Origin: an uncultured Erysipelotrichaceae bacterium
GTDB taxonomy: Bacteria; Bacillota_I; Bacilli_A; Erysipelotrichales; Erysipelotrichaceae
Assembly (NCBI GenBank): GCA_942493105.1
Contig: OW818668.1
Location: 1,170,001 to 1,202,000 of the forward strand
Reading direction: 5' to 3'
DNA: 32,000 bases
Position numbers and translations under genes: made by a program. Below are positions 2,668-26,245 of this stretch, piece after piece (positions within the stretch are counted from its first letter, which is position 1; each line of letters begins with the position of its first letter). The notes under the pieces are model-generated. The model searched no databases. It was not told where the DNA came from and was given only the letters and a program-made list of their open reading frames with translations.

Positions 2668-2682
2668 ATATTATAAATTCCT

Positions 2683-2810
2683 TTCATCAGTGAACAGGTG
2701 GCTCTGTTGATTTAACCTTACTGTTGTCGACACACTGTTTGCCGAAGAGGCATCCGCCGAATCTTTCGATACTCCTCTTTCCTCGTCACTCCCAATGGAG
2801 CCGGGCGCTA
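2683..2810 (-). ncRNA. glmS ribozyme: glmS ribozyme (GlcN6P-dependent self-cleaving leader)
   Basis: The minus strand reads AGCGCCCGGCUCCAUUGGGAGUGACGAGGAAAGAGGAGUAUCGAAAGAUUCGGCGGAUGCCUCUUCGGC...GUAAGG. It carries the conserved core blocks AGCGCC, GACGAGG, AUCGAA and UUCGGCGGAUGCC. It sits immediately 5' of glmS. Ends are approximate. Confidence 0.85.
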
Positions 2811-3040
2811 TAATTGATCTTTATGCAACGTTTTTAGTTGTCTTCCTCCTTTACTATGTTAGTTTAGCATATCCTACCAAGTCTAAACAACACTACATTG
2901 TGTGCATTTTAGTAAAAATAAATACATATTCATCCTATTTGTTTTTATATGTTCAGAAATCGTTTCTAAAAGGTAAACAAATCAAGCAAGACAAGACTCA
3001 TTTTTAGACAATTTTCTCAGGACTTGTTTCATCTTTCCTA

Positions 3041-3069
3041 CTGACAAAACAAAAAAGAATGTGTATAAT
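3041..3069 (+). promoter_or_regulatory. Sigma-70-type promoter for the tRNA cluster
   Basis: CTGACA (3041..3046), 17-nt spacer, TATAAT (3064..3069), 10 nt upstream of the first tRNA. Confidence 0.55.
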
Positions 3070-3079
3070 ATACAAGCAT

Positions 3080-3156
3080 CGGGACGTAGCACAGCTTGGT
3101 AGTGCACTACCTTGGGGTGGTAGGGGTCGCGCGTTCAAATCGCGTCGTTCCGACCA
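3080..3156 (+). tRNA. tRNA-Pro, anticodon read as GGG
   Basis: Manual cloverleaf: acceptor CGGGACG/CGTTCCG, anticodon stem CTACC/GGTAG, loop TTGGGGT (G37), T-loop TTCAAAT, encoded CCA. Confidence 0.85.
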
Positions 3157-3158
3157 AT

Positions 3159-3235
3159 GCGGCCGTAGCTCAGTTGGATAGAGCGAGCGCCTCCTAAGCG
3201 CTAGGTCACAGGTTCAATTCCCGTCGGTCGCGCCA
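3159..3235 (+). tRNA. tRNA-Arg (anticodon CCT)
   Basis: Manual cloverleaf: acceptor GCGGCCG/CGGTCGC, anticodon stem AGCGC/GCGCT, loop CTCCTAA, encoded CCA. Confidence 0.85.
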
Positions 3236-3264
3236 AAAACCCTTAATGGAAGATTTATAAATAA

Positions 3265-3348
3265 GCACCAGTGGCGGAACTGGCAGACGCGCACGTTTGA
3301 GGGGCGTGTGATTTAACCGTACGGGTTCAAGTCCCGTCTGGTGCACCA
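3265..3348 (+). tRNA. tRNA-Leu (anticodon GAG), class II with long variable arm
   Basis: GCACCAG...CTGGTGC acceptor, anticodon stem CACGT/GCGTG, loop TTGAGGG, long variable arm, T-loop TTCAAGT, encoded CCA. Confidence 0.8.
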
Positions 3349-3392
3349 AAAATTACCCAATTGTTGGATAATGATGGATGAAATTATTAGCC

Positions 3393-3433
3393 CCTAAAAA
3401 AACAGAAGGACTGACTAGAATCAATCCTTTTTT
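3393..3433. terminator. Bidirectional intrinsic terminator between the tRNA cluster and the convergent SIS gene
   Basis: Hairpin AAGGACTGA-CTAGAA-TCAATCCTT with one mismatch. It is flanked by an A-run (3394..3400) and a T-run (3427..3433). Confidence 0.55.
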
Positions 3434-3464
3434 TATAAAGTGTTTCCTGATCAATAAATCTCTA

Positions 3465-4202
3465 TTAAAAATTATGAATATATCGTTTCATAAGATCTTC
3501 GTTATGGGCATCAGCACCATCTAGATTTGAACTTATAAAGACAGGGACTTCTAATCCTAAAGCTTTGATTTTTGAGGCAACCAAGATACTGATGGATTCC
3601 GCCATAAAAGCCCCGATAATAGTAGAACTGGATCCCATCATTAATCCATCTCCTAAGTCAAAACCAGCATCACCAAAAGCTCCGCAATTATCAATGATGA
3701 TGTCTGCATAATGATCTAGATTCTTTCCTAATGGATGTCTGGAACTGATGGATTTGGTTTGTTTATCATTGACGAATGCGATCACATTCAGTCCTGCCTC
3801 TTGAGATATCTTTGCAAGTTCTATAGGCAAAGCATTACGTCCTGAGTTACTGCAAATCATGATCACATCTCCAACTTCACAATGATACAGATCGAAATAT
3901 ACTTTCGCCAAATCTTTGGTTCTTTCAAGTCTTGTAGATTTCAATGGATGATCGCTTAAGTTCAATTCATTGGGAATCATGGGAGTCACATTGGCTAAGC
4001 CTCCCGCCCGAGCATAGAATTCCTCAGCGATCATATGGGAATGACCACTTCCAAATATTAAGAAACGTTTGTGTGCTACATAAGCTTCAACGATTTTATC
4101 AGAAGCCTTTTCAATGGCTTCCCATTGGGTTTCTTGAAAGTGTTTCAGCAATGAATTGATTTGGGTAGCATATGCAGTGAATAAAGGGTTAGATGGTTTC
4201 AT
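3465..4202 (-). CDS. SIS (sugar isomerase) domain protein, UPF0309-like
   Basis: 245 aa with FGSGHSHMIAEE and ICSNSGRN motifs characteristic of single-SIS UPF0309 proteins. SD AAGAGGAG and a TGcTATAAT extended -10 lie upstream. Confidence 0.75.
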   Translation of the reverse strand: MKPSNPLFTAYATQINSLLKHFQETQWEAIEKASDKIVEAYVAHKRFLIFGSGHSHMIAEEFYARAGGLANVTPMIPNELNLSDHPLKSTRLERTKDLAKVYFDLYHCEVGDVIMICSNSGRNALPIELAKISQEAGLNVIAFVNDKQTKSISSRHPLGKNLDHYADIIIDNCGAFGDAGFDLGDGLMMGSSSTIIGAFMAESISILVASKIKALGLEVPVFISSNLDGADAHNEDLMKRYIHNF

Positions 4203-4330
4203 AAGTGACTCCTCTTAAGTTTTTAAGCTTAATCGTATTATAGCATGTCATCATTTATTGAACTTGTAGCCGAGAAATCAAGTCATACATAGAAGGTGAT
4301 AAAAATAAGATTGTTTTCACAATACAGTGG

Positions 4331-4336
4331 TATAAT
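4331..4336 (+). promoter_or_regulatory. Extended -10 promoter element for the PTS IIB gene
   Basis: TGGTATAAT, i.e. TGn plus TATAAT, 26 nt upstream of the ATG. SD AAGGAGA at 4349..4355. Confidence 0.45.
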
Positions 4337-4362
4337 GATTTAGTTCATAAGGAGATAGTACG

Positions 4363-4665
4363 ATGAAGAAGATCGGTTTATTCTGTGTAGGTGGATTAAC
4401 AACAACTTTGTTGGTCAATAAGATGAAAAAGATAGCGAATGAACAGAGTTATCCTTTGGATATTTCAGCATATCCTACGATTGAGATGGATGTTAAAGGT
4501 AAGAACTGTGATCTTATCATTTTAGGACCTCAAGCAGCCTCTTCATTAAAAGAAGTTCAATCAAAGTATCCCAATAAAAAAGTCATGGTATGTGATATGT
4601 TGGCTTTTAGCCAAATCGATGCGAAAAAGATCCTTGAGGCTGCCAAAGCTTTGTTGGAAAGTTAA
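4363..4665 (+). CDS. PTS lactose/cellobiose-family EIIB component
   Basis: 100 aa. The N-terminal MKKIGLFCVGGLTTTLLVNKMKK has a P-loop-like active-site Cys typical of ChbB/CelA-type IIB. Confidence 0.8.
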   Translation: MKKIGLFCVGGLTTTLLVNKMKKIANEQSYPLDISAYPTIEMDVKGKNCDLIILGPQAASSLKEVQSKYPNKKVMVCDMLAFSQIDAKKILEAAKALLES

Positions 4666-4694
4666 TACTCAACCACAGAAAATAAGTCATTTGG

Positions 4695-4731
4695 AAACAA
4701 ATCATTCGATAATAGAATGGTTTGTTTTTTA
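4695..4731 (+). terminator. Rho-independent terminator after PTS IIB
   Basis: 13-bp stem AAACAAATCATTC/GAATGGTTTGTTT with one G-U pair, loop GATAATA, then a T-run. Confidence 0.8.
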
Positions 4732-4808
4732 TATACACATTACTAAATCAATAGGTAAACCATCTGATAAAACAAGGCTCATGATACAATAAGTCTAGAG
4801 GTAAACCC

Positions 4809-5354
4809 ATGAAAAAGATCCTTGTCTTATTGGCCGAAGGTTTTGAAGAAGGTGAAATGACCATTCCAGTAGATGTTTTACGCAGAGCCCATTTTCAAGT
4901 TGATTTGATGTCGATTGGGTTTTTGGAAGTCATATCATCGCATGGAATCAAAGTGACTGCTGATCGACTGTGGGATGAAGATTCATCTTATGATGCGCTA
5001 CTTTTACCTGGAGGATCTCCTGGAACAGCTCATTTACTTCAAGATGAACGTGTTTTAGCTTTGGTTCGTCATTATGATCACGAAGATAAATATATTTTTG
5101 CGATCTGTGCTGCCCCAAGTGTTTTAGCGAAAGCTGGTATCTTAAAAGGAAGACGGGTCACTTCATATCCGTTAGAAAATTTGGAAACGATTTTCGCTAT
5201 GGCCCATTATTTACTGGATGATGTTGTTATTGATAAAAAGCTCATCACCTCAAGAGGGGTAGGGACTGCCTTCCAATTTGCTTATGCTTGCGCAAATGCT
5301 TTAGGAGCAGATGTTTCATCCCTAAAAAGAATCATGATGTACAACGGTAAATAA
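4809..5354 (+). CDS. DJ-1/PfpI (ThiJ) family protein
   Basis: 181 aa. LLPGG and nucleophile-elbow AICAAPSVL motifs with the conserved Cys. Confidence 0.85.
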   Translation: MKKILVLLAEGFEEGEMTIPVDVLRRAHFQVDLMSIGFLEVISSHGIKVTADRLWDEDSSYDALLLPGGSPGTAHLLQDERVLALVRHYDHEDKYIFAICAAPSVLAKAGILKGRRVTSYPLENLETIFAMAHYLLDDVVIDKKLITSRGVGTAFQFAYACANALGADVSSLKRIMMYNGK

Positions 5355-5513
5355 ACATCATGATAGGTTAATAGATATAAATTAGATTCTTACTCCTCAA
5401 TGACATAAATTGTATTTTTAGATCTATAAATAAAAGCCAAGTACTCATTGTCTTCTCTTAAGTTTCTATGGCAATTTTCATGAAGTTTGCTATAATTATG
5501 AAGCATCACAAAA

Positions 5514-5596
5514 GCACCAGTGGCGGAAATGGCATACGCGCACGTCTCAGAAGCGTGTGGGCAACCGTGCGGGTTCAAGTCCCGCCTGGTGCACCA
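5514..5596 (+). tRNA. tRNA-Leu (anticodon CAG), class II
   Basis: Acceptor and T-arm are nearly identical to the tRNA-Leu at 3265. Anticodon stem CACGT/GCGTG with loop CTCAGAA, encoded CCA. TATAAT at 5491..5496 lies upstream. Confidence 0.8.
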
Positions 5597-5685
5597 TCTT
5601 AGTGATTCACTTTTTGGTTTGAAAACCATTGAGTTAATAAACCATTGATTGATTCTAATAAGCACACCAACATCTAAAAAAGCAT

Positions 5686-5727
5686 AAAAAGCTGATCTCA
5701 ATGAAATTGATGATCAGCTTTTTTTAC
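5686..5727. terminator. Bidirectional intrinsic terminator (tRNA-Leu on plus strand, perR-like gene on minus strand)
   Basis: AAAAAGCTGATC...GATCAGCTTTTT inverted repeat with A-run and T-run flanks. It lies 4 nt beyond the stop of the minus-strand Fur-family gene. Confidence 0.8.
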
Positions 5728-5731
5728 ACAA

Positions 5732-6133
5732 TTACTTTTCTATCAGATTAGGTTTTTGTTGGCACTTCTTACAGATACCTTCGAAAACGATGTGATGCTT
5801 GTGGATGATATACGAAGTTTCTTTGGCTACCACTAAATCAAATTCATTTTGATAAGTCAAAGGCAAATCTATGATTGATTTACATTCTATACAGAGAAGA
5901 TGATAATGCGTATCTTGGCGTATTTCAAAATGATCCACTTGAGATATTTTGATTTGATGTACATCACCTTGCTTAACCATAACATTAAGATTCCGATAGA
6001 CTGTGCTTCGACTTATTTTACTGTCTATGGATTTGATATCCAAGTAAATTTGATCAGCACTAGGATGATCATTGCGTGCTTTGAGTGCACTTAAAACACG
6101 TTGCCTTTGTTTTGTGTTTCTGTTTTGATTCAT
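5732..6133 (-). CDS. perR: Fur-family metalloregulator, probably peroxide sensor PerR
   Basis: 133 aa with a winged-helix N-terminus and two CxxC pairs (CIEC, CKKC). His-rich DTHYHLLC. It lies directly downstream of the catalase gene. Confidence 0.7.
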   Translation of the reverse strand: MNQNRNTKQRQRVLSALKARNDHPSADQIYLDIKSIDSKISRSTVYRNLNVMVKQGDVHQIKISQVDHFEIRQDTHYHLLCIECKSIIDLPLTYQNEFDLVVAKETSYIIHKHHIVFEGICKKCQQKPNLIEK

Positions 6134-6161
6134 TCATGTAACCAGTATAAGCAAATCTTTC

Positions 6162-7676
6162 CTAGATGGGTTTTGGTAGTGTTGCTTCAATAAGCCCTTT
6201 GTGATTTAGTTTGGAAAGTTCTTTCACTTTTTTAAGATCTAGTCCAGCTGCTTTTGTAAAACGTTCGCCATATTCTTTATCAGCAAGATAACAATGAACA
6301 GCATGTCTGTATTTAATGTTTTCTGTAACTGAAGCAATATCATTGGCTGTATTCTCGATAAGGATCTGTTTCTTATCTTCAGTCAAGATCTTCCATAAAT
6401 TACCGCCAGCTCTGAAACAATCGTCTGTAGGATCATCTTTAGGATCATAGCGATACATGGCTCCATCTAAATCCAATGGGGGTTCCAAAGCTTCAGGTTG
6501 AGCTGCCCATATGCCATCACTGTTAGGTGAATAAGCAGGTGCACTTCCATAGTTACCATCTGTACGCATGGCACCATCACGATGATATTCATTGACTTCA
6601 CCTTTCGCTCGATTGACTGGGATATGATTGTGGTTGACTCCTAAACGATAGCGTTGGGCATCACCGTAAGAGAATAATCTGCCTTGTAGGAAACGATCTG
6701 GACTAAATCCGATTCCAGGAACCACATGGGCCGGAGTGAAAGCAGCTTGTTCAACTTCCGCAAAGAAATTTTCTGGATTTCGATTTAATTCAAGCACGCC
6801 TACAGGAATCAGTGGATATTCAGCATGCGGCCAAATCTTAGTGATGTCGAAAGGATTTTCATAATGATGCTTGGCTTGTTCTTCCGTCATGATTTGAACA
6901 AACATATTCCATTTTGGAAAATCACCGCGTTCAATCGCTTCATAGAGATCTTTACCATGATACTCACGATCCATCCCATTGATTTTAGCAGCTTCTTCAT
7001 TGGATAAATTTTTAATGCCTTGTTGTGTCTTGAAGTGGAACTTGCACCAAACACGTTCATTCTTTTCATTATAGAATGAGAAAGTATGTTCTCCAAAGAA
7101 GTGCATATTTCTAAATGAACTTGGTATCCCACGATCACTCATAACAATTGTGATCTGATGGAAACATTCAGGAAGCAAAGTCCAGAAATCCCAATTATTT
7201 TGAGCAGAACGACGACCCGTATGAGGATCTCGCTTAACTGCACGATTCAAATCAGAGAAATTATGGACATCCCGAATAAAGAAGGTTGGTGTATTATTGC
7301 CTACCAAATCCCAGTTGCCCTCTTCAGTGTAAAATTTAACAGCGACACCACGAATATCGCGTTCACAGTCAGCTGCGCCGCGTTCTCCTGCAACAGTCGA
7401 GAAACGAATAAATAAATCTGTGACTGTACCTGGCTGTAAAACTTTGGCCTTGGTGAACTTTGAAATATCGTTGGTCACAGTCAGTTTGCCATAAGCTCCC
7501 CATCCTTTCGCATGCATACGACGTTCTGGGATGACTTCTCGGTTGAAGTGGGCCATTTTCTCCATCAACCAGACATCCTGCATAACGACGGGACCTCTAG
7601 GACCAGCCGTTATAGAATTCTCATTATCAGGGACCGGTGCTCCTACTTCATTGGTAAGATTCTTGTAGTCTTTCAT
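6162..7676 (-). CDS. katA: Monofunctional heme catalase
   Basis: 504 aa. Classic catalase motifs are present: [53 protein letters not shown] upstream. Confidence 0.95.
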
Positions 7677-7722
7677 ACTTATTCTCCTTTCATTTATGTA
7701 AATATCACAGGGATATTTGCAA

Positions 7723-8373
7723 CTATAGTGACAAACACATCACAAGTAACCACAGATAAGTACAGGTTTTTGGAAGCATCAACATCCCAATCTTTGGATT
7801 ATTGTTTGCCCAAATCACCACTGGCAGATAAAACATAAAACTCAGCAGGATAGCCAACCACGCCCATTCTAAGCCAGGTTGACTGGATTTGTTTATGAAG
7901 AATAAACCAGCCACCATCAAACCCATCAAGAAAAAAGGAACATTGCGCCAAATTCCCCAATTTACTGGAGGATATCGTTGAGTCCATTTATTTTGAGGCA
8001 ATAAACACAAGATGATCCTTATTATCGCTAAGGCATACATCATCATTGTCCAAATATAAGTGTTTTCTGGACTATAAACAGAGATTCCTATTTGCCACAA
8101 TAACAGATAAAAGAAAGTCATGGTGATTGAAGTGATTTGCTTTCCACGTCCCAGTATTTTACGATACTTCTCTTCATTGTCGCTCAAGATAACGATGATC
8201 CTTGGGATCAAATGAAAAGCATCCCCACCCACCAGTACCAAAGCCATAATGCCCGCAAGGTATCGTGATGACTGATCCCCAGCGCTTTGAATCAGAACAA
8301 TTCCTATGAGTAAGGCACTTAAAAGATAAAACACATCAAACAATGCTTCTACTTTTCCAAACATTCTTTTCAT
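7723..8373 (-). CDS. Polytopic integral membrane protein of unknown family
   Basis: 216 aa with about 6-7 hydrophobic segments and a [11 protein letters not shown] motif. No family recognised. It ends 46 nt upstream of the catalase gene on the same strand. Confidence 0.6.
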
Positions 8374-8404
8374 GATCTAAAAACTCACTTTCTTTTAGCC
8401 AAAC

Positions 8405-8476
8405 TTAAAATATGAAAGGTAACCCAGTTCCAATCAAAAACAGTAATCCAATGCTTGAAAGCAGAAAGATTTTCAT
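8405..8476 (-). CDS. Possible 23-aa hydrophobic micropeptide (MKIFLLSSIGLLFLIGTGLPFIF)
   Basis: ATG-to-TAA ORF found by hand on the minus strand, 31 nt upstream of the membrane-protein gene. AAGGTAAGG lies about 12 nt upstream. It could be chance in AT-rich DNA. Confidence 0.2.
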   Translation of the reverse strand: MKIFLLSSIGLLFLIGTGLPFIF

Positions 8477-8683
8477 ATCAATGGGGTACCTTACCTTAAG
8501 GTGTATATAAATGAATCTTATTAGGACTAGATACGAATAGTATACTTCTAAAATTAAGCTTAATGTGTTTTATAAGCTATGAATGCGTGGTTTCACGAAT
8601 CTTTCATCCTTATCCTAAACATCTTATTTTAGCCAGTTGGGAGATTTGAAGAGCTTAAATTTATTGCGTTGGTTGTTTTGTGT

Positions 8684-8707
8684 ACAAAAAAAGTCCAATG
8701 GACTTTT
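8684..8707 (-). terminator. Rho-independent terminator after the epimerase gene
   Basis: The minus strand reads AAAGTCC-ATT-GGACTTT followed by TTTTTTGT. It overlaps the stop codon at 8706..8708. Confidence 0.7.
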
Positions 8708-9722
8708 ATAGACTATATTTAGATTGTTCTTTTTTAAATCGTTCGATTAAGGTATCACAATACGCATCAAAAGCAGGTTCTTCGACTTTTAATTCAGGAT
8801 GATCCTGCATATATTGAAGGAATCTGTGAAGTCCTTCTTCTAAGGATATTTGAGGATTAAAATCAGGGACAAGATGTTTTAGCTTAGAAATGTCATAGAT
8901 ACAAGAAAACATTTTATCACCTTGTATTGATGTTAAGAAATCAAACGATGTGCTTTGGGCTAAGATCGTTGAAGGAATATAAACTGGCTTAAAACTAACT
9001 TTCAAAGCTTTGGCTAAGATTCTATAAACATCATTAAAGGTATGGCTTGCTGGATTCATGATCTGTATGATTTCTCCGATCGTATCAGGGTGATTAATCA
9101 ATGGAATAAATCCCTTCGCGAAATCATCCGCATGGGTTGAAGCCCAAACCGATTCACCATCCCCATGGATGATGACTTCTTTACCTTGGATCATGCGTTG
9201 GATAACTGGCCAACAGCTATTGCCTTTGATACTTAACGGAATGCGATGTTCACTGTATGTTTGCGATGGTCTGACGATCGTAATTGGGAAACCGCTCTTT
9301 TTATATGTAATTAGGAATACTTCTTCAGCAGCGGCTTTATTTCTTCCGTATAGGCTAAAACGATTGCCTTTGGGAGATTGTTCATTGATGTTGAGGGACT
9401 GTTCATGATCGAGACAAGCAACAGTGCTGATGAAGATAAACTGCTTGGTGATCTTTTTGAATAAGTCGATTCTTTGGTAAGCTTGATCAGGGGTGAAAAT
9501 GATAAAGTCGATGATGCAATCAAATGTTCGATCGATCAGAAGCTCTTGGATAGAGTGGGTAGAACTCATATCACCAATCAAGACTTCAATTCTCGGATCT
9601 AGTTTTTCATTATGATGACCGCGATTGATCAGAGTCAACCTAACTTCAGGATCGTTGGCTAAAGTTTGCGTAATGGGTGTTGAAATCGTTCCTGTGCCAC
9701 CGATGATAAGGATCTTTCTCAT
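8706..9722 (-). CDS. NAD(P)-dependent epimerase/dehydratase (extended SDR) family protein
   Basis: 338 aa with the N-terminal Rossmann motif ILIIGGTGTIS. The start overlaps the punA stop by ATGA. Confidence 0.8.
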   Translation of the reverse strand: MRKILIIGGTGTISTPITQTLANDPEVRLTLINRGHHNEKLDPRIEVLIGDMSSTHSIQELLIDRTFDCIIDFIIFTPDQAYQRIDLFKKITKQFIFISTVACLDHEQSLNINEQSPKGNRFSLYGRNKAAAEEVFLITYKKSGFPITIVRPSQTYSEHRIPLSIKGNSCWPVIQRMIQGKEVIIHGDGESVWASTHADDFAKGFIPLINHPDTIGEIIQIMNPASHTFNDVYRILAKALKVSFKPVYIPSTILAQSTSFDFLTSIQGDKMFSCIYDISKLKHLVPDFNPQISLEEGLHRFLQYMQDHPELKVEEPAFDAYCDTLIERFKKEQSKYSL

Positions 9723-18790: not shown

Positions 18791-18815
18791 AAATGAACCT
18801 TTCGGTTCATTTTTC
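18791..18815. terminator. Bidirectional intrinsic terminator shared by the convergent EIIA and pilT-like genes
   Basis: AAAAATGAACC-TTTC-GGTTCATTTTT. The 3' arm overlaps the stop of the minus-strand ATPase gene at 18807..18809. Confidence 0.8.
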
Positions 18816-19880
18816 ATGAGTTTCAGCAAGTCTCTTTTTAACCAATACTGGATCAAAGCTATGAATAATGGCTTCCTTAGCATCTATCTTTTTATCTTTG
18901 ACCATAGAGATCAACATCGTATCCATAGAAATCATGCCTTCATTGACCGATGAAGAAATCGCATTCATCAATTGATGGGTCTTGCCTTCACGAATCAAAT
19001 TCTTGATTGCAGGAGTAGAATTCATCACCTCAAAGACAGGAATCAGATTGCCTTCTTTATCTTGGACCAATTGTTGGGATATGACGGCTTGCAGGGTCAT
19101 CGACAATTGGACTCTGACTTGTTGTTGCTGAGCAGGCGGAAAGACATCGATGATGCGATCAACAGTATTGGCTGCACCTAAAGTATGCAAAGTTGAGAAA
19201 ACCAAGTGACCTGTTTCAGCAGCCGTAATGGCTAATGATATGGTATCTAGATCGCGCATTTCTCCTACAAACAAGACGTCTGGAGCTTGTCTAAGCGCTG
19301 CTTTTAAAGCTGAGGATGTTGATGTGCAATCGGTCCCAATCTCACGCTGTGAGACCACGGATAGGTTGTGGGTGTATAAGAATTCTATAGGGTCTTCAAT
19401 GGTAACGATGTGGGCTTCTCTGGTTTGATTGATCTTATCGATCAAGGTCGCAACAGTGGATGATTTACCGCTTCCAGCTGGACCACTGATGATGACCAAA
19501 CCTTTTCTCATGTCTGCGAATTTTGTGATTTCTTTAGGGATGTGCAGTTCTTCCGCATTGGGAATCTGAAATTTTACGATTCTTAAGACAGCGGCTAATG
19601 AACCTCTTTGACGATAAACATTGACTCTAAAACGAGCCACTTGTGGGATCGAAAACGAGAAATCATCATCGCCTTGAAGAGATAATGATTCTTTAGTATT
19701 ACGATGAGCTAAGACATAGATCTCATTGATGAGATTCTCACTTACGATAGGGACTGTTTTTTCTTGATTCAAAGGGGTCAAACGATTGTTGACTTTGATC
19801 TCAATGGGACAGCCCGCAACGATGAAGATGTCTGAGGCTTTGGCACTGATGGCGCTTTGGATGATTTCTTGGATGTTCAT
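18807..19880 (-). CDS. pilT: PilT-type (retraction-class) type IV filament ATPase
   Basis: 357 aa. Walker A GPAGSGKSST, Walker B VLFVGEMRD. PilT-signature blocks AAETGHLVFSTLHTLGAANTVDRIIDVFP and AIKNLIREGKTHQ. No GspE-N or zinc-finger domains. Confidence 0.8.
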   Translation of the reverse strand: MNIQEIIQSAISAKASDIFIVAGCPIEIKVNNRLTPLNQEKTVPIVSENLINEIYVLAHRNTKESLSLQGDDDFSFSIPQVARFRVNVYRQRGSLAAVLRIVKFQIPNAEELHIPKEITKFADMRKGLVIISGPAGSGKSSTVATLIDKINQTREAHIVTIEDPIEFLYTHNLSVVSQREIGTDCTSTSSALKAALRQAPDVLFVGEMRDLDTISLAITAAETGHLVFSTLHTLGAANTVDRIIDVFPPAQQQQVRVQLSMTLQAVISQQLVQDKEGNLIPVFEVMNSTPAIKNLIREGKTHQLMNAISSSVNEGMISMDTMLISMVKDKKIDAKEAIIHSFDPVLVKKRLAETHEK

Positions 19881-20356
19881 TGGGGGCCTTTCCAGATCGG
19901 ATCTCCATCAAGGGAGTAATCCTGATCGTTCTCTATGGTTAAGATTTGACCCAGAAGGGTAAAATCTGAAGAACTGTGAGTAGTTGAAATTCTGACTTTG
20001 ATCGTAACTGAATATGGACCTGATTTATTTGAGAAAGAGAAAGTATAAGGATCTTCACCGATCACTAATTCTGGATGATTTTGATAAAAGGCTTGGATCG
20101 AAGGATTCAAATCATTTCCAATCGGTAAGAAATCATTGATCTGATCAAACTCAGATTTAAGCTTCTGATACATCGTCAAACTTAAAGCTTGAGCTTCAGT
20201 GCTGCCTTCAAGTAAAGTTAAACTTCGTTTAAGTCCTTTATTGTCGGCATTGGCACTAACTAAGGATAGGCTTGCAAATCCTAAAACACTCAAGACAATC
20301 AAGACAGTCAAAATGGTAGGTAAACCAAAGACTGTATTTAATGATTCTTTTCTCAT
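19877..20356 (-). CDS. Small bitopic protein, possibly a ComGG/PilX_N-like minor pseudopilin
   Basis: 159 aa. N-terminus MRKESLNTVFG-LPTILTVLIVLSVLG (Gly followed by a hydrophobic helix, no Glu5). ATGA overlaps at both ends. Confidence 0.4.
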   Translation of the reverse strand: MRKESLNTVFGLPTILTVLIVLSVLGFASLSLVSANADNKGLKRSLTLLEGSTEAQALSLTMYQKLKSEFDQINDFLPIGNDLNPSIQAFYQNHPELVIGEDPYTFSFSNKSGPYSVTIKVRISTTHSSSDFTLLGQILTIENDQDYSLDGDPIWKGPQ

Positions 20357-20742
20357 TGAGGCAACTCTGAAAGTGCACTGACTTTCATGTGGAATACGAT
20401 TTGACCCGATTTATTTTTTAAACTCAGATCAGCTTTGTTTAAGCCCTCTGTTTGTGTTAAGGTAATGATCATCGTATAGTGTACATCACTTGTGTTGGCT
20501 TCACCATGAGCATCATATGTCGTTGTGAACGATGGCGACATGTTGGCCCAATCTTGATTGGGTTGACGTAAGGACTCTGCCTGTATGACCATGAGTTCTG
20601 AAAGCTTTCTTAAGGCCATGGTTTCTGTATGGATCGTAGCTGCCTTGGTAAACATTGAAAAGGCAACCACTAAGGCTACACTTAAGATAATAAGACTTAA
20701 GGTAAACTCAAGCAAGAAAAAGTGCAATTGTTTATTTTTCAT
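20353..20742 (-). CDS. Small bitopic protein with a degenerate prepilin-like N-terminus
   Basis: 129 aa. In MKNKQLH-FFLLEFTLSLIIL, Phe+1 and Glu+5 are possible but His replaces the canonical Gly at -1. Confidence 0.4.
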   Translation of the reverse strand: MKNKQLHFFLLEFTLSLIILSVALVVAFSMFTKAATIHTETMALRKLSELMVIQAESLRQPNQDWANMSPSFTTTYDAHGEANTSDVHYTMIITLTQTEGLNKADLSLKNKSGQIVFHMKVSALSELPQ

Positions 20743-21200
20743 GAGGAAGCACCTGAAGCCATCACAGTGTAGGTGAACTGAACGGTCTTGCCTTCTAGAT
20801 CGGTATATTGAATGATGATCTTATGGGTTTGAAGCGTAAAACTAAGATTTTTAAGCGGCAATATTTTCTGTGCTTCTAAAGGTTGGATCAGGGCTGTCTC
20901 TGAGCTTTGTTCAAGCAGGTATCCGTCCACTTCATATACTAAAGTATAATAATCATCTTGTTTAAAACATAAAGCTTGGATATGTCCAGAGCTAATGACT
21001 GTGATCTGATCTTGTCCATCATGCTGTTTGATGCGATTGTTGAAGTAAAGAAGGGCACTGTGACGATTTAAACTGAGTTCATTATCTTTGACCATGGTGG
21101 TGTAAAATTGAGCACCATAAAGCACCACAAAGCCTGAGCCACCTAAAAACAAGGTAATCAAAGATAAAATGATCAGGTTTTTAAAGGATGTTCGTTTCAT
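20739..21200 (-). CDS. Small bitopic protein (ComGF-like or PilN/O-like candidate)
   Basis: 153 aa. MKRTS-FKNLIILSLITLFLGG N-terminal helix followed by a beta-rich domain. No canonical G-FTLxE motif. Confidence 0.35.
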   Translation of the reverse strand: MKRTSFKNLIILSLITLFLGGSGFVVLYGAQFYTTMVKDNELSLNRHSALLYFNNRIKQHDGQDQITVISSGHIQALCFKQDDYYTLVYEVDGYLLEQSSETALIQPLEAQKILPLKNLSFTLQTHKIIIQYTDLEGKTVQFTYTVMASGASS

Positions 21201-21487
21201 TGCGGATCCCTCAGATAAACACTCACATCAGGTCGTATATTGGCTCCAATCGTTTTATAGTACACAAAGTATTGATCAGAACTGATCTGTATCCCATAGT
21301 GCTCAATCAAATAGTCCAGTTGCGCCGGATAAAAGCCTTCTTGGGCATAACATAGATTTAAAGCCCTTTGAATCGCATTTTCGACTTGTATGCGACGTTC
21401 TTCTTGAGTTGATCTTTGGATCATGGATGAAAAGAACCAAAGACTCAAGATGACCAAAGGAATCAATAACCAGCGTAGGATCTTCAT
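21197..21487 (-). CDS. 96-aa ComGC-sized pilin-like protein lacking a class III signal peptide
   Basis: An N-terminal TM (WLLIPLVILSLWFF) is followed by an amphipathic helix and then ..AQEGFYPAQLDYLIEHYGI... That segment resembles the G-x-Y/T-P-x-x-L-x-x-L segment of ComGC/GspG pilins. It occupies the comGC position after the platform gene. Confidence 0.4.
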   Translation of the reverse strand: MKILRWLLIPLVILSLWFFSSMIQRSTQEERRIQVENAIQRALNLCYAQEGFYPAQLDYLIEHYGIQISSDQYFVYYKTIGANIRPDVSVYLRDPQ

Positions 21488-21488
21488 A

Positions 21489-22514
21489 TTAACCCAAAGA
21501 ACTCATGATTCCAATGAGTGGAATGATCAAAGAGAAAAGGACTAAGGCAACAAACCCAGTCAATGTGAGAATCAAGATCGGTTCAACTTTATTCAATAAG
21601 GCTGTTAAACTGCTTTCAGAATCTTCCTGTGTTTTCTTTGAGACATGTTCCATGACTTCATCTGTTTTACCTGTTTTATACGCTATGGTCAATGTGTTTT
21701 GAAGCAAAGGAGGATAAATACTGGTGTTGACTAAAAGGTCGTATAAACCTTGAGAAGGGCTCAGATCTTTGATTTTAGCATCAAGCTTATCTTTGAGTTG
21801 CCCTGCAGGAACTTGTGCCATCGCAAGTGCCATGGCTTCTTGCTGTTGAATCCCGGCTCTTAAAACCAATTGACTGATGAAACTAAAACGAGCCAAGTCT
21901 GCTTTATATTTTCTGGATGGGAACAAACGTAATACTTTATCGCCTAAATCAACAGGGGTCTTATTGAGTCTACCTTTAATGAGTGTAAATACAATGATGA
22001 CAATGATACTGATCAAGGCACCTAAAGCGATGATCACAAAGCCTTTAGAGATCAATAGGAGCATTTGGATCCAAGCATCAAGGGAACCACCTAAGCTTTC
22101 ATATACATCTTGAAAGACAGGGATGACCACAAAGGTCAACACAGCCATCACCAAAATCAAAATGGTCATCAACATCAACGGCATGATCATGATGTCTTTT
22201 AAGAAAGATTTTGTTTCAGCTTGTCTTTGGTAATAATGAGCCAAATGGGTTGATACAGAAGCTTCTTGACCAATGGTTTCAGCTGCTCTCATGGCTAAAA
22301 CTGCTTCTTTTGGAAAGCGAGGATCTTGTGCCATCGCTAAGGAAAGTTTACCTGTTTCTCTTAAGTTTTCTTTTAGCTGTTTAAGATCGATTTGATCCGC
22401 TGTATCTAGAAACCCCAGGCCTTCTCTTAAATCCATCCCAGACTCATAAATCAGTGCCACTTGGGTACTAAAGAGACTTAAGGATTCCTCATCATAACTT
22501 GTGTTTTTTTTCAT
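21489..22514 (-). CDS. Type II secretion / type IV pilus platform protein (GspF/PilC/ComGB family)
   Basis: Two T2SSF-like repeats (..LIYESGMDLREGL...RFPKEAVLAMRAAETIG.. and ..LVLRAGIQQQEAM...IYPPLLQNTLTIAYKTG..) with 3 TM segments. The start is set at the ATG at 22514 (SD AAAGGAG 5 nt upstream), not the TTG at 22529. Confidence 0.8.
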   Translation of the reverse strand: MKKNTSYDEESLSLFSTQVALIYESGMDLREGLGFLDTADQIDLKQLKENLRETGKLSLAMAQDPRFPKEAVLAMRAAETIGQEASVSTHLAHYYQRQAETKSFLKDIMIMPLMLMTILILVMAVLTFVVIPVFQDVYESLGGSLDAWIQMLLLISKGFVIIALGALISIIVIIVFTLIKGRLNKTPVDLGDKVLRLFPSRKYKADLARFSFISQLVLRAGIQQQEAMALAMAQVPAGQLKDKLDAKIKDLSPSQGLYDLLVNTSIYPPLLQNTLTIAYKTGKTDEVMEHVSKKTQEDSESSLTALLNKVEPILILTLTGFVALVLFSLIIPLIGIMSSLG

Positions 22515-22525
22515 ACGATCTCCTT

Positions 22526-23440
22526 TCAATAGAAGAGCTTTTCTTGATATTTTCCAAAATAAGGACCTTGAGCATCAAAGGTAGGGTCAATTCTTTTCCA
22601 GGTTTCTTTTTCAAAATAAATCGAAGGATTGATCCATCCGATCCCATCGATATATGTTTCTACCCAAGCATGATAACCAGGATCTGTATATCCTGTAACC
22701 ACTTTGGTTGGGATATGCTGTACCCGAAGCATCGCTGTCATCAGGGCTGCATAATCGAAACAAATCCCTTTTTGTTTGGTATAGGCATCATCAAGATCGG
22801 GTATCATAAATGTTGTTAAGGCTTCTTTGACTTTATCATAATCATAATCGATGTTGGTGACGATGTATTTATATACAGCATAAACTCTTTCAAGCTGACT
22901 CTTAGAGTCTTTGGTCAATTCAAAGGATTTTCGAACGGCCAAGGTCTCTTTATCATAATCGACGATTTGATTGGGATACAGATAGATGCTGAGTTCATCA
23001 GTCAAATTTGCGGTGATTTCTATTGATGCGGTCACACTGTAGGCATTATCAACTTTTTGTTTCAAAGTTCGAATTGTATACGTTCCTGAACCTTTCATAA
23101 GGGGTAAGATGGTGAATTTGTTTTCAAATACACTATAGGTATAAATCAAATCGCCCTGTATGACCTGAACCTTCTTGGTGTTTTCGTCATTTGGACCTTT
23201 AACGCAGACATAACCTTGTGCTTTATTTGAATAGTCGATCAGGTATCCGTTTTTTTCAAAAACTGTTTTTTGTGGACAAGAAGGCAACAAAATTTCATCG
23301 ATTGTATATTGTTTACTGATGGGGCCTTCAGTGGGATATTTTCTGAATGGATTATAGAATTGAAGAACGATAAAAGAGCCAAGCCCTAAAACTAGGGCTA
23401 CGATAAGAATGACAATGATGATGCGACCACGTTTAGTCAT
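22526..23440 (-). CDS. Membrane-anchored transglutaminase-like (papain-fold Cys-His-Asp) protein
   Basis: Single N-terminal TM (RIIIVILIVALVLGLGSFIVL). C-terminal core KGICFDYAALMTAML...GYHAWVETY...RIDPT. The start is set at the ATG at 23440 with GGAG 8 nt upstream. The upstream extension in the ORF track contains the promoter -10. Confidence 0.75.
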   Translation of the reverse strand: MTKRGRIIIVILIVALVLGLGSFIVLQFYNPFRKYPTEGPISKQYTIDEILLPSCPQKTVFEKNGYLIDYSNKAQGYVCVKGPNDENTKKVQVIQGDLIYTYSVFENKFTILPLMKGSGTYTIRTLKQKVDNAYSVTASIEITANLTDELSIYLYPNQIVDYDKETLAVRKSFELTKDSKSQLERVYAVYKYIVTNIDYDYDKVKEALTTFMIPDLDDAYTKQKGICFDYAALMTAMLRVQHIPTKVVTGYTDPGYHAWVETYIDGIGWINPSIYFEKETWKRIDPTFDAQGPYFGKYQEKLFY

Positions 23441-23477: not shown

Positions 23478-23575
23478 AATGAAATAAACTCAAGCTTGTT
23501 GTACCTTTAGTAAACAATCAATATATTTCTTTATTTATAAGGACTTAAGCGAGGTCATTTGATATAATATTGGCT

Positions 23576-24835
23576 ATGAAATCATCTGTACTAAAAGCAC
23601 TTAAAGCCATTTCGACTCATCATTATGTCCATGCATTACAAAAGTCTTTGATGTCGGTTGTCGGAGTCAGTTTTATCGCAGGATTACTGTTGATCATTCA
23701 AAACCCACCTGTTTCAAGCATCAGCAATGGTGAATTCATTCGTGTTGATTGGGTCAACTTTGCTGCAGATAATGCTGGTCTTTTAAGTCTTGGTGTCCAA
23801 ATGACTTTAGGCATGATCGGATTGTACACATTGATTGCCTTCATCATACATCTGGCTCATCATTATAAAATGAATCCTTTTCATCCGGTTTTATCAGGTG
23901 TCAGTGCTTATTTGATTTTATCTGTGGGTTTTGTGGTCCAAGGATCAGGCCTTGATCTTGATCTGAAATATTTGGGATATTCTGGGATTTTTGGAGCTTT
24001 TATATTAGGGATCTTGGTGGTTGAGGTATCACGCTTATCAATCTATGTGAGATCGAAAATAAACATAAAGTCTGAAGTTTCAAGTCACTTGATTCAACCC
24101 TTGGAATCTTCATTAAGTACTTTGCTGATAATATTGTTTGCACTTGCCTTAAGATTTTGGTTTCAGCAACAAAATATTCTTTTGCCAGATTTGATTTTAA
24201 AAGCAATTTTACCACTACTTAAGGAATCTAATACGCTATGGTTTGTAATGGGAGTCATATTGTTCAGTAAATTATTATGGTTTGTCGGACTAAATGGAAA
24301 CAGCTTGATTTTGGTCAGTTTGATTCCTTTGATGTTGATCAATAATGCTCAAAACCTTGTTGCTTATCAAAATGATATGGCGATTCCGTATATTATATCA
24401 ACGGGTTTTCTTTTCTTTGAATTGGGTGTCTTACCTTTAGCGACAGCGATTTTGCTTTTCTCAAAAAATAAGCAACAAAAAGGAAGTGCCAGGTTAGGGA
24501 TACTGCCCGCTTTATTCAATTTCCAAGAAACGATATTAACCGGTTTACCTTTAACTTTTAATGTTAATTATTTGATTCCCTACCTATTGACCAGTGTGTT
24601 ATCTCTTTCGGTATCTTATCTTGCAATGGCAAACTTTCTTATCAGTAAACCGTTATTTGCGATGTCCTTTGCTTTACCAGGTTTTCTTGGGGCTTTCTTG
24701 AGCACGATGGATTGGAAAGCCATCGTTTTATGGATGCTTCTGTATGGGCTATGTACCTTGATTTATTGGCCATTTATTCGCGAAATTGAAAGAATAGAAC
24801 CAGCGGTTCAAGATGAGCATTTGAATAATACTTAG
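23576..24835 (+). CDS. PTS lactose/cellobiose-family EIIC permease
   Basis: About 419 aa polytopic protein. The N-terminus ..HYVHALQKSLMSVVGVSFIAGLLLIIQNPP resembles the conserved ChbC/CelB-type EIIC start. The ATG at 23576 is preferred over the TTG at 23570. Confidence 0.75.
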   Translation: MKSSVLKALKAISTHHYVHALQKSLMSVVGVSFIAGLLLIIQNPPVSSISNGEFIRVDWVNFAADNAGLLSLGVQMTLGMIGLYTLIAFIIHLAHHYKMNPFHPVLSGVSAYLILSVGFVVQGSGLDLDLKYLGYSGIFGAFILGILVVEVSRLSIYVRSKINIKSEVSSHLIQPLESSLSTLLIILFALALRFWFQQQNILLPDLILKAILPLLKESNTLWFVMGVILFSKLLWFVGLNGNSLILVSLIPLMLINNAQNLVAYQNDMAIPYIISTGFLFFELGVLPLATAILLFSKNKQQKGSARLGILPALFNFQETILTGLPLTFNVNYLIPYLLTSVLSLSVSYLAMANFLISKPLFAMSFALPGFLGAFLSTMDWKAIVLWMLLYGLCTLIYWPFIREIERIEPAVQDEHLNNT

Positions 24836-24871
24836 AATATCTTGTGATACACTATAGATAGAGGTAAAATT

Positions 24872-25300
24872 ATGGAACATTGGTTTTGGATCATCATTGC
24901 CTTGGCGACACTAGGGCTTGAGATTGCGACCGTTGGGACTTTGGTTTCAATATGGTTTTCACTTGGTGCTTTTGCAGCATATATCGCATATTTGATTAAT
25001 TTGGATTTCTTTGCCCAATCGATGATTTTCTTGGTGGTCAGCCTTGTTGCTTTCTTGACCATTAGACCATTGGTAAGGCGCTATTTTACAGTTAAACAAC
25101 AACCCACCAATGCGGATCGATATATTGGACAAAAAGTTACTGTTACTGAAGCAGTTTCCACTGAACATTGGGGTGCAGTCGTTATTCAAGGCGTTCGTTG
25201 GAGCATTCGTGAAGTTAAGAATCAATCGGTCAATGTTGGAGAGACCGTTGAAATCGTAGCCCTTGAAGGGGCAAAGTTATTGGTCAAAAAGGTCCAATAG
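24872..25300 (+). CDS. NfeD-family membrane protein
   Basis: 142 aa. Hydrophobic N-terminal half plus a C-terminal OB-like domain (..GQKVTVTEA....GAVVIQGVRWSIR...G..VEIVALEGAKLLVKK). It lies upstream of an SPFH gene. Confidence 0.8.
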   Translation: MEHWFWIIIALATLGLEIATVGTLVSIWFSLGAFAAYIAYLINLDFFAQSMIFLVVSLVAFLTIRPLVRRYFTVKQQPTNADRYIGQKVTVTEAVSTEHWGAVVIQGVRWSIREVKNQSVNVGETVEIVALEGAKLLVKKVQ

Positions 25301-25312
25301 GAAAAGGAACAT

Positions 25313-26245
25313 ATGGAACAAATCATTGGTTTAATTTTAACGATTTTCTTTGTCCTCATATTTATCGCACTGTTGAGTATGACCATCAAGATCATACCTC
25401 AATCCCATGCTTATGTCGTTGAAAGATTGGGTGCTTATTCGCATACCTTGCCTAAAGGCTTGCATATGTTGTTTCCGATCGTTGATCGGATTGCACTGGA
25501 TGTACCCTTAAAAGAGCAAGTCTATGACTTCCCACCACAACCGGTCATCACGAAAGATAACGTTACGATGATGATCGATACGATCGTCTTCTTTCAGATC
25601 TTAGATCCAAAGCTGTTTGCGTATGGTGTTCAAAACCCCATCAAGGCCATTGAAGCTTTAACCGCAACGACGTTAAGAAATATCATTGGGGATCTTGAAT
25701 TGGATGATACTTTGACTTCAAGAGAAGTGATTAATACCAGAATGCGTATTATCTTGGATGAAGCCACTGATCCTTGGGGCATCAAAGTTAATCGTGTAGA
25801 AGTTAAAAATATCTTGCCTCCAAAAGACATTCAAGAAGCCATGGAAAAACAAATGCGTGCAGAACGTGAAAGACGTTCTTCAATTCTGTTGGCTGAAGGT
25901 GAAAAACGTTCAGCGATCTTAATGGCTGAAGGTGAAAAGGAATCTGTCGTATTAAGATCTGAAGCTAAGAAACAAGCTTTGATCGCAGAAGCTGAAGGGC
26001 AAGCACAAGCCATGGAGCGTGTATATGAAGCTCAGGCACGTGGGATTGAATTGATCAAGAAAGCCAATCCTGGTCAAGCGTATCTAACTCTAAAAGGTTT
26101 TGAAGCTTTAGAGAAGGTCGCTAATGGTCAAGCTACAAAGATCATCATTCCTTCAGAATTACAGAATTTAGCGTCTGTCATCGGGGCTGCACAAGCCATA
26201 TTGGATGATAAGAAACCTGCAGTCAAAGAAAAAGAAGTCAAATAA
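25313..26245 (+). CDS. SPFH/band-7 (stomatin/prohibitin-like) protein
   Basis: 310 aa. N-terminal TM, SPFH core (IIPQSHAYVVERLGAY...), and a C-terminal coiled-coil with repeated AEGEK motifs. Confidence 0.9.
   Translation: MEQIIGLILTIFFVLIFIALLSMTIKIIPQSHAYVVERLGAYSHTLPKGLHMLFPIVDRIALDVPLKEQVYDFPPQPVITKDNVTMMIDTIVFFQILDPKLFAYGVQNPIKAIEALTATTLRNIIGDLELDDTLTSREVINTRMRIILDEATDPWGIKVNRVEVKNILPPKDIQEAMEKQMRAERERRSSILLAEGEKRSAILMAEGEKESVVLRSEAKKQALIAEAEGQAQAMERVYEAQARGIELIKKANPGQAYLTLKGFEALEKVANGQATKIIIPSELQNLASVIGAAQAILDDKKPAVKEKEVK

Follow-up and report, generated by a model that had tools for sequence, protein, structure and literature searches.

The DNA analysed here, referred to below as the window, is a stretch of 32,000 nucleotides from an uncultured Erysipelotrichaceae bacterium (contig OW818668.1, positions 1,170,001 to 1,202,000 of the forward strand). 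On its minus strand lies a cassette of seven translationally coupled genes that encode, in this order, a transglutaminase-like enzyme, a platform protein, four small proteins that we call p96, p153, p129 and p159 after their lengths in residues, and a PilT-family ATPase. Genes for a hexameric ATPase and a platform adjoin in this cassette and are coupled with four pilin-like genes, which marks it as a type IV filament machine. The four small proteins occupy the positions of pilins, and an earlier note on this DNA had described their N-termini as odd, with class III signal peptides that are degenerate or missing. The open reading frames (ORFs) are as described and their translations agree with the N-termini that were quoted.

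In the direction of transcription, the four genes are located at positions 21197-21487 (p96, N-terminus MKILRWLLIPLVILSLWFF), 20739-21200 (p153, N-terminus MKRTSFKNLIILSL), 20353-20742 (p129, N-terminus MKNKQLHFFLLEFTL) and 19877-20356 (p159, N-terminus MRKESLNTVFGLPTILTVL), all on the minus strand. Each opens at the first start codon past an in-frame upstream stop, and ATGA overlaps join successive genes among them. Independent gene calls on orthologous contigs give matching products of 96, 153, 127 and 158 amino acids. Upstream stops, overlaps and ortholog sizes together exclude a shift of start codon, and re-annotation therefore cannot restore a normal G/FTLxE motif (the slash marks the junction). 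The four ORFs and their non-canonical N-termini are kept across about 95 related loci (numbered L001-L095), and the ortholog alignments extend the degenerate or missing class III signals to the whole of each family. Neither the window nor, in the related loci, the approximately 8 kb around the cassette contains a canonical prepilin ORF.

Type IV pilins are defined by a short basic leader that ends in Gly, rarely Ala, at position -1. The Glu at +5, which neutralises the N-terminus in type IV filaments, is missing only from minor pilins of the cap type (GspK and ComGG, for example). In the alignments of the cassette proteins these two hallmarks are partitioned over different subunits: Gly(-1) is found in p159 and Glu5 in p129, and p153 and p96 have neither in this genome.

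In the p129 family, Glu(+5) is present in 63 of 63 relatives and forms the only invariant column other than Met. The residue at -1 is Gly in 14 of 64 relatives, and the remaining spectrum comprises Pro (17), Tyr (10), His (6), Arg (6), Ser (4), Gln (3), Asp (2) and Asn (1), with His in the present genome. The junction reads KQLH/FFLLEF in the window and takes the canonical-looking form SKSG/IFLMEL in some gut lineages, among them loci L037-L063. When the family is compared with Escherichia coli GspJ using hhalign, a match of 91% is obtained (E = 1.1e-6) in which residues 1-56 align with residues 1-56, in a register that places His7 on Gly7 and Glu12 on Glu12. GspG and GspH are also picked up (41% and 31%, respectively), and the controls GspM, GspL, GspC and the transglutaminase-like protein all remain below 1%. 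Relatives of p129 further give recurring sub-threshold NCBIfam matches to ComGG, XpsI, ComGE, PilV and GspH, and one of them matches ArlF weakly. The family has no Pfam match, and its profile is also without a match among the PDB sequences. These alignments identify p129 as a pilin/pseudopilin homologue.

The p159 family has Gly(-1) in 56 of 56 relatives, as its sole invariant residue other than Met. At +5 it has Leu, Val, Met, Phe or Ile, and Glu in none of the 56. In an alignment of 23 p159 sequences with a mean identity of 33%, Gly11 is the single invariant column. The C-terminus is also conserved and follows the pattern ..QDYSxDGDP[IV]W.G. Weak NCBIfam matches, all below threshold, are to ComGG (the most frequent, in five of 23 members), GspI (4.9e-4) and ComGD (0.019). 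The family profile retrieves nothing from the PDB sequences, and hhalign against E. coli GspG-K gives nothing significant. Because Gly(-1) is invariant in all of these relatives, the junction is more probably a true site of the GspK/ComGG type, with Glu5 absent, than a degenerate site. This makes p159 a candidate for a GspK/ComGG-type cap subunit and, among the four proteins, the only one that would be plausible as a substrate of the distant PilD. It combines a hydrophobic helix and an invariant junction Gly with recurrent sub-threshold matches to minor pilins; its relationship to pilins is likely, although this relationship is the weakest on direct evidence.

For p153 a domain assignment is available. 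It matches Pfam DUF4860 (PF16152) with an E-value of 7.9e-12 and 45.4 bits against a gathering cut-off of 25, and its orthologs carry the same match. In this genome p153 has Ser at -1 and a hydrophobic residue at +5 in place of Glu. Counted by regular expression, a junction Gly is present in 29 of 70 relatives and the combination G....E in none of the 70. The pilin fold consists of an N-terminal helix α1 of about 50 residues, hydrophobic in its first half, that is set on a β-sheet like the stick of a lollipop. The AlphaFold2 model of p153 (pLDDT, the predicted local distance difference test, of 80) has a similar lollipop shape, with a helix of 57 residues (3-59) followed by eight strands. The best TM-scores (template modelling scores) in Foldseek are to XcpW/GspJ, with 0.52-0.53 for PDB entry 5bw0 (probability 0.99), 0.49 for 3nje and 0.40 for chain J of 3ci0, and the match with the lowest E-value is an archaeal type IV pilus. 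A search of the PDB sequences with the single p153 sequence returns no match, and hhalign of the family against E. coli GspG-K yields nothing significant. Going by the predicted fold, p153 is probably a pilin relative.

In Clostridia-type loci (L036, L043, L071, L076, L084 and others) the homologues of p153, p129 and p159 contain a conserved Cys within the transmembrane (TM) helix, in the contexts FAVCVL, AAALCL and AVLCLT. The p129 and p159 homologues of these loci also have a W-Q motif in common in their C-terminal strands (VAWQE, LRWQ).

The most conserved among the four small proteins is p96, a small bitopic protein. In its family the TM helix is preceded by a basic N-terminal tail with a median length of 13 residues (range 0-37) and a net charge of +3, and there is a head with the conserved pattern ...CYAxEGxYPxxLxYLxxHYG...N[IL]xPD[IV]. 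The class III motif GFTLxE occurs in none of 138 full-length representatives. In the AlphaFold2 model (pLDDT 96.5) a helix of 49 residues (2-50) and a short helix (57-64) precede a two-stranded head, and five of the 29 weak Foldseek matches of this model are pilins or PulG. Pfam (T2SSG included), NCBIfam and the PDB give no sequence match; the Pfam and PDB searches covered the family as well. With hhalign, the family reaches 0.2% for GspG, and nothing significant is found among E. coli GspG-K. The head had earlier been thought reminiscent of those of ComGC and GspG; with these results the resemblance is reduced to a lead, and the likeness of the p96 model to pilins is one of architecture only. 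The family has a single Cys, Cys46 (at about position 21350 of the window), that is at least 90% conserved.

These properties of p96 bear on the possibility that the cassette builds a true filament, in which all four proteins are matured in a non-canonical way by an A24 peptidase of relaxed specificity or another membrane protease, with p96 as the major subunit and the other three as primers. The order and sizes of the genes do parallel comGB-GC-GD-GE-GF-GG and gspF-G-H-I-J-K. The product of the first gene after the platform is p96, the smallest of the four and the most conserved, as is usual for major pseudopilins, and its model helix has the length of that in a pilin. However, all 138 p96 representatives are without a Gly/Phe junction or Glu5, and neither the sequence nor the fold of p96 matches pilins significantly. 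No alternative conserved cleavage motif is visible, and the basic N-terminal tail of p96, which differs in length between members of its family, would be hard to reconcile with packing inside a filament core. The residues found at -1 in p129 moreover include Pro, Tyr, His and Arg, which A24 peptidases reportedly reject in the mutagenesis of Strom and Lory. We therefore regard a true filament as improbable.

A different role was also considered, in which p96, and perhaps p159, would not enter a pseudopilus but would serve as an accessory, alignment or stator protein and scaffold the platform in the manner of PilN/PilO/GspM or of ArlF/ArlG. It agrees with the lack of any class III feature or detectable pilin homology in p96 and with the long helix that follows the TM segment of p159. 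The archaeal ArlF/ArlG, which are pilin-like, unprocessed and not filament subunits, set a precedent, to which the weak ArlF match of one p129 relative may be added. The models of p96 and p153, on the other hand, consist of one long helix and a small sheet and not of the (α-β-β)x2 repeat of PilO/GspM, and comparison of the four families with GspM, GspL and GspC using hhalign stays below 5% (at most 4.2%). The suggestion that two of the proteins are in fact PilN/PilO/GspM-like is thus not borne out. For p159, the class III junction supplies the sole invariant residue, its Gly, and the commonest weak match is ComGG. An accessory role as such is unlikely in our view.

The cassette ATPase (positions 18807-19880, minus strand) is encoded by the seventh and last gene. 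It scores 407 bits against a cut-off of 319 with the NCBIfam model TIGR01420 (pilT_fam) and matches Pfam T2SSE with 2.4e-45, while the 143 bits obtained with the ComGA model do not reach the cut-off of 300. It aligns with Aquifex PilT (PDB entries 2gsz and 2ewv) over its full length, residues 2-348, with an E-value of 4e-87, compared with 1e-24 for PilB, and the PilT-type motif AIKNLIRE is present in its translation. By these comparisons the motor is a true PilT, and the cassette encodes no other ATPase.

The inner-membrane platform protein of 341 amino acids, which is PilC/GspF-like, is encoded by the second gene at positions 21489-22514 of the minus strand; its ORF reaches a TTG at 22529. 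Two stretches match Pfam T2SSF (3e-22). The NCBIfam scores for GspF (115 bits, cut-off 424), PilC (90 bits) and ComGB (78 bits, cut-off 240) are all under the equivalog cut-offs.

A prepilin peptidase of the A24 family (PilD/ComC type) is encoded at positions 71-823 on the minus strand, 19 kb from the cassette. It is recognised by A24_N (5e-35) and Peptidase_A24 (1.6e-12), and its translation contains the GGADVK motif. At the edge of the window, the gene comes immediately downstream of glmS (positions 71-2667), with no further pilus gene visible nearby. A peptidase internal to the cassette was considered and rejected: none of the 95 loci has an A24 homologue in the cassette or in the approximately 8 kb around it. 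This leaves the enzyme at 71-823 as the sole candidate for processing p159. In many cases a prepilin peptidase is encoded away from the machine that it serves and is shared between systems (PMC6668835).

The first gene of the cassette (positions 22526-23440, minus strand) encodes the transglutaminase-like enzyme of 304 amino acids, which matches Pfam Transglut_core (4e-22). Its orthologs place the start at the Met at 23440, despite an ORF that reaches a TTG at 23479. The closest solved relative is PDB entry 3isr, a putative cysteine protease (4.6e-7), followed by TgpA (PDB entry 6g49, 0.005). Across 46 orthologs, conservation of Cys240, His270 and Asp298 is 95% or higher. The N-terminal anchor (positions 23350-23440 in the window, compared with orthologs in L028-L093) differs by lineage: Erysipelotrichaceae have a TM signal-anchor and the other lineages a lipoprotein lipobox, L-x-[AG]-C. 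Because one or the other is present in every lineage, the Cys-His-Asp domain is predicted to be extracytoplasmic throughout.

This location bears on the idea that the enzyme substitutes for an A24 peptidase and matures all four small proteins, the role for which the earlier note had named it as an obvious candidate. In favour of this idea, the gene for the enzyme invariably opens the cassette, the catalytic triad is conserved and the nearest relative of known structure is labelled a putative cysteine protease. Class III sites, however, are cleaved at the cytoplasmic face of the membrane, and in the four proteins the junction is at the end of the TM helix that faces the cytoplasm. Since the catalytic domain and this junction are expected on opposite sides of the membrane, the enzyme is unlikely to act as a prepilin peptidase. 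None of the four families has a conserved extracellular cleavage motif either, and the genome does encode an A24 peptidase. Taken together, we consider maturation by this enzyme very improbable.

The C-terminus of the enzyme (positions 22526-22560 in the window) may point to another role. In 32 of 32 non-redundant orthologs it ends in a conserved aromatic peptide with Tyr as the last residue, in the form ..G-x-Y-Q-x-K-x-x-Y-COOH or ..N-Y-[TS]-x-K-Y-x-Y-COOH. In PilC/PilY1, MshQ and CpaL the last approximately ten residues add a β-strand to a PilK-type minor pilin, which licenses assembly of the tip complex (PMC13533445). Because the C-terminal strands of these adhesins join a PilK-type pilin, the analogy suggests that the enzyme may dock through its own C-terminal strand in a PilC/PilY1-like manner.

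To judge how widely this organisation is kept, the cassette was followed through genomes and metagenomes. A genome scan with the platform protein gives 13 Erysipelotrichaceae loci of 48-77% identity, and the seven genes have an identical order in 13 of 13. The relatives of the platform form a narrow clade, the closest being Erysipelotrichaceae metagenome-assembled genomes, after which there is a gap down to 24% identity. Where the platform is only 24% identical, the gene order is retained as far as the short contigs reach, and these contigs contain a transglutaminase-like gene, T2SSF, a 97-residue gene, DUF4860 and two more small genes. Exhaustive phmmer searches with p96 retrieve 915 representative clusters at E <= 1e-3, and a metagenome scan with the p96 alignment gives 553 coding stretches, with freshwater, human gut and sludge among the sample types. 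With few exceptions, the long metagenome loci show the order transglutaminase-like enzyme, platform, p96, p153, p129, p159 and PilT.

Some loci deviate from this pattern. In human-gut metagenome contigs L037-L063 (for example L048, positions 5738-9701) the cassette is without an adjoining PilT gene, and in this lineage it is flanked by genes for a secreted CAP-domain protein and a convergent sortase. At L065 (positions 1833-6666) three genes, those for the transglutaminase-like enzyme, the platform and PilT, are broken into two or three ORFs apiece, which are either pseudogenes or assembly errors.

The breadth of this distribution is relevant to the question of whether the cassette is the remnant of a decaying type IV pilus or Com operon, with N-termini that are odd because of mutational decay. 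The hallmarks are indeed degenerate and there is one locus, L065, with split genes. Against this, intact ORFs in the same order are found over hundreds of contigs and down to 24% platform identity, the 915 p96 clusters have a strongly conserved core, the triad of the enzyme is conserved, and the invariance in the small proteins is selective for exactly Gly(-1) and Glu5. Decay can hardly be credited as an explanation. Judged by its conservation, the seven-gene cassette is a selected and widespread system, neither a local oddity nor a decaying remnant.

We therefore return to the four small proteins as components of a working machine. That they are pilin-derived and mostly unprocessed is, in our judgement, quite likely. 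The fuller reading, to which we give an even chance, is that p96, p153, p129 and p159 are conserved bitopic pilin derivatives with the N-terminus inside and the C-terminus outside, that they belong to a seven-gene machine of the type IV filament type which builds a short pseudopilus, and that only p159 is cut. In this genome, p96, p153 and p129 are best explained by one proposal of the earlier note, that these proteins are unprocessed and retained in the membrane, but it does not extend to p159 with its Gly(-1) in every relative.

In this mechanism all four small proteins would insert with the N-terminus in the cytoplasm and the C-terminus outside. Only p159 would then be cleaved, by the distant A24 peptidase acting as a shared housekeeping enzyme, and Glu5 of p129 would neutralise the new N-terminus of p159. 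The uncleaved p153, with its GspJ-like fold, and p96 would tether the assembly in the membrane. The product would be a short stub or piston resembling GspHIJK and not a long fibre, driven by the platform and the PilT-type ATPase. The extracellular Cys-His-Asp enzyme would be its working partner or cargo and may be held via the conserved C-terminal strand.

Several observations weigh against this reading. None of the four proteins reaches a pilin cut-off in Pfam or NCBIfam, and all sequence matches of p159 to pilins are sub-threshold. The Foldseek E-values of p153 are all above 0.02 (above 0.1 for XcpW) and thus non-significant. Those of p96 are at least 0.8, also non-significant, and its match to PulG is local only. 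Sequence methods link p96 to no pilin, and this protein could be a non-pilin accessory protein or a substrate of signal peptidase I. More generally, any protein that consists of a TM helix and a β-sheet will resemble a pilin to some degree. A PilT-type ATPase as the lone motor is unusual for assembly, and one human-gut group of cassettes is without an adjacent ATPase. The pairing of Glu5 with the N-terminus, the short piston and the role of the enzyme C-terminus are drawn purely from patterns of conservation.

The surroundings of the cassette in the window are unremarkable. It is bordered by a divergent gene for EIIC of a phosphotransferase system (PTS) on one side and a convergent PTS EIIA gene on the other, and the remainder of the window consists of housekeeping genes. 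The flanking PTS EIIC, NfeD and Band_7 genes (positions 23570-26245) are syntenic with those of an Erysipelotrichaceae relative (L097/L098, positions 6291-8954) with a platform that is 56% identical, and because of this synteny the cassette appears to be a settled part of the chromosome, as opposed to a mobile island. Elsewhere in the window (positions 5732-7676) a catalase gene adjoins the gene for a Fur-family, PerR-like regulator, forming an oxidative-stress pair in a host from a mostly anaerobic family.

Database records label the proteins of this cassette as hypothetical, and the open-access literature that was searched yielded no account of the cassette, DUF4860 or the p96 family. Pilins are defined and found by the class III motif, and PilFind- or TIGR02532-like tools would overlook the four proteins discussed here. 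With the proposed assignment DUF4860 would gain a function, and the three families that match neither Pfam nor NCBIfam would be annotated, among them p96 with about 900 clusters at 50% identity. The retention of Gly(-1) in p159 and of Glu5 in p129 amounts to a natural experiment that separates two roles of the pilin N-terminus, cleavage and charge pairing in the helix bundle. The cassette also presents a PilT-type motor without a PilB partner and, in Bacillota that are abundant in gut and fresh water, an extracellular transglutaminase-like enzyme that is tied to a pilus-type machine. Tentatively, it may define an unrecognised class of type IV filament machines in monoderm Bacillota, including human-gut Clostridia. 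In such a class most subunits would never be processed, Gly(-1) and Glu5 would be split between subunits, a PilT-type ATPase would be the sole motor and a tethered piston would carry or actuate a surface enzyme docked by its C-terminal strand.

Among known systems, the pseudopilus tip complex of the type II secretion system (T2SS) and the Com pilus come nearest to the cassette. The T2SS with GspH-I-J-K and GspF resembles it in that a platform gene precedes a row of small bitopic pilin-like proteins. GspK is without Glu5, as is p159; p129 aligns in register with GspJ, and the p153 model is nearest to XcpW/GspJ. The tip complex of the T2SS is a short assembly, as is the output proposed for the cassette. 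In contrast to the T2SS, the cassette has a PilT-type ATPase in place of a GspE-type one and, in its monoderm host, no GspC, GspL, GspM or secretin. It keeps Glu5 in one subunit and Gly(-1) in another and has no canonical major pseudopilin. It adds an obligatory transglutaminase-like membrane protein or lipoprotein, and its platform stays below the GspF cut-off (115 against 424 bits).

The Com pilus (ComGA-GG and ComC) is likewise a system of Bacillota in which the platform is followed by subunits of about 100-150 residues and the peptidase is encoded elsewhere. Its last subunit, ComGG, has no Glu5, as is the case for p159, and is the commonest weak match of the relatives of p159 and p129. The ATPase of the cassette, however, is operon-terminal and of the PilT type, and the ComGA and ComGB cut-offs are not reached (143 against 300 and 78 against 240 bits, respectively). 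There are four subunits in the cassette and five in Com, p96 in the position of ComGC has no class III signal, and the transglutaminase-like gene has no Com counterpart.

The tip adhesins PilC/PilY1, MshQ and CpaL of type IVa pili (PMC13533445) offer a parallel for the enzyme. In both cases a large non-pilin protein is encoded beside minor-pilin-like genes, conservation at its C-terminus runs to the very last residue, and a PilK/GspK-like partner without Glu5 (p159 in the cassette) is at hand. The cassette differs in that this protein is a tethered Cys-His-Asp enzyme and not a β-propeller adhesin, and its contact with p159 is putative. The archaellum proteins ArlF/ArlG (FlaF/FlaG) provide a parallel for uncleaved subunits, as they are relatives of filament subunits that use an uncleaved TM helix as membrane-anchored parts; they differ in being archaeal and in having a β-sandwich fold, and the sequence tie is the single weak ArlF match among p129 relatives.

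MSH pili (PMC6668835) resemble the cassette in having a locus without its own prepilin peptidase, which is presumably borrowed, but they possess canonical class III pilins and a PilB-type assembly ATPase. The cassette is set apart from every recognised class of type IV filament by the combination of a PilT-type sole motor, the absence of a canonical major pilin, a lone Glu5 subunit and a lone Gly(-1) subunit, a first subunit without a signal, and an obligatory transglutaminase-like protein.

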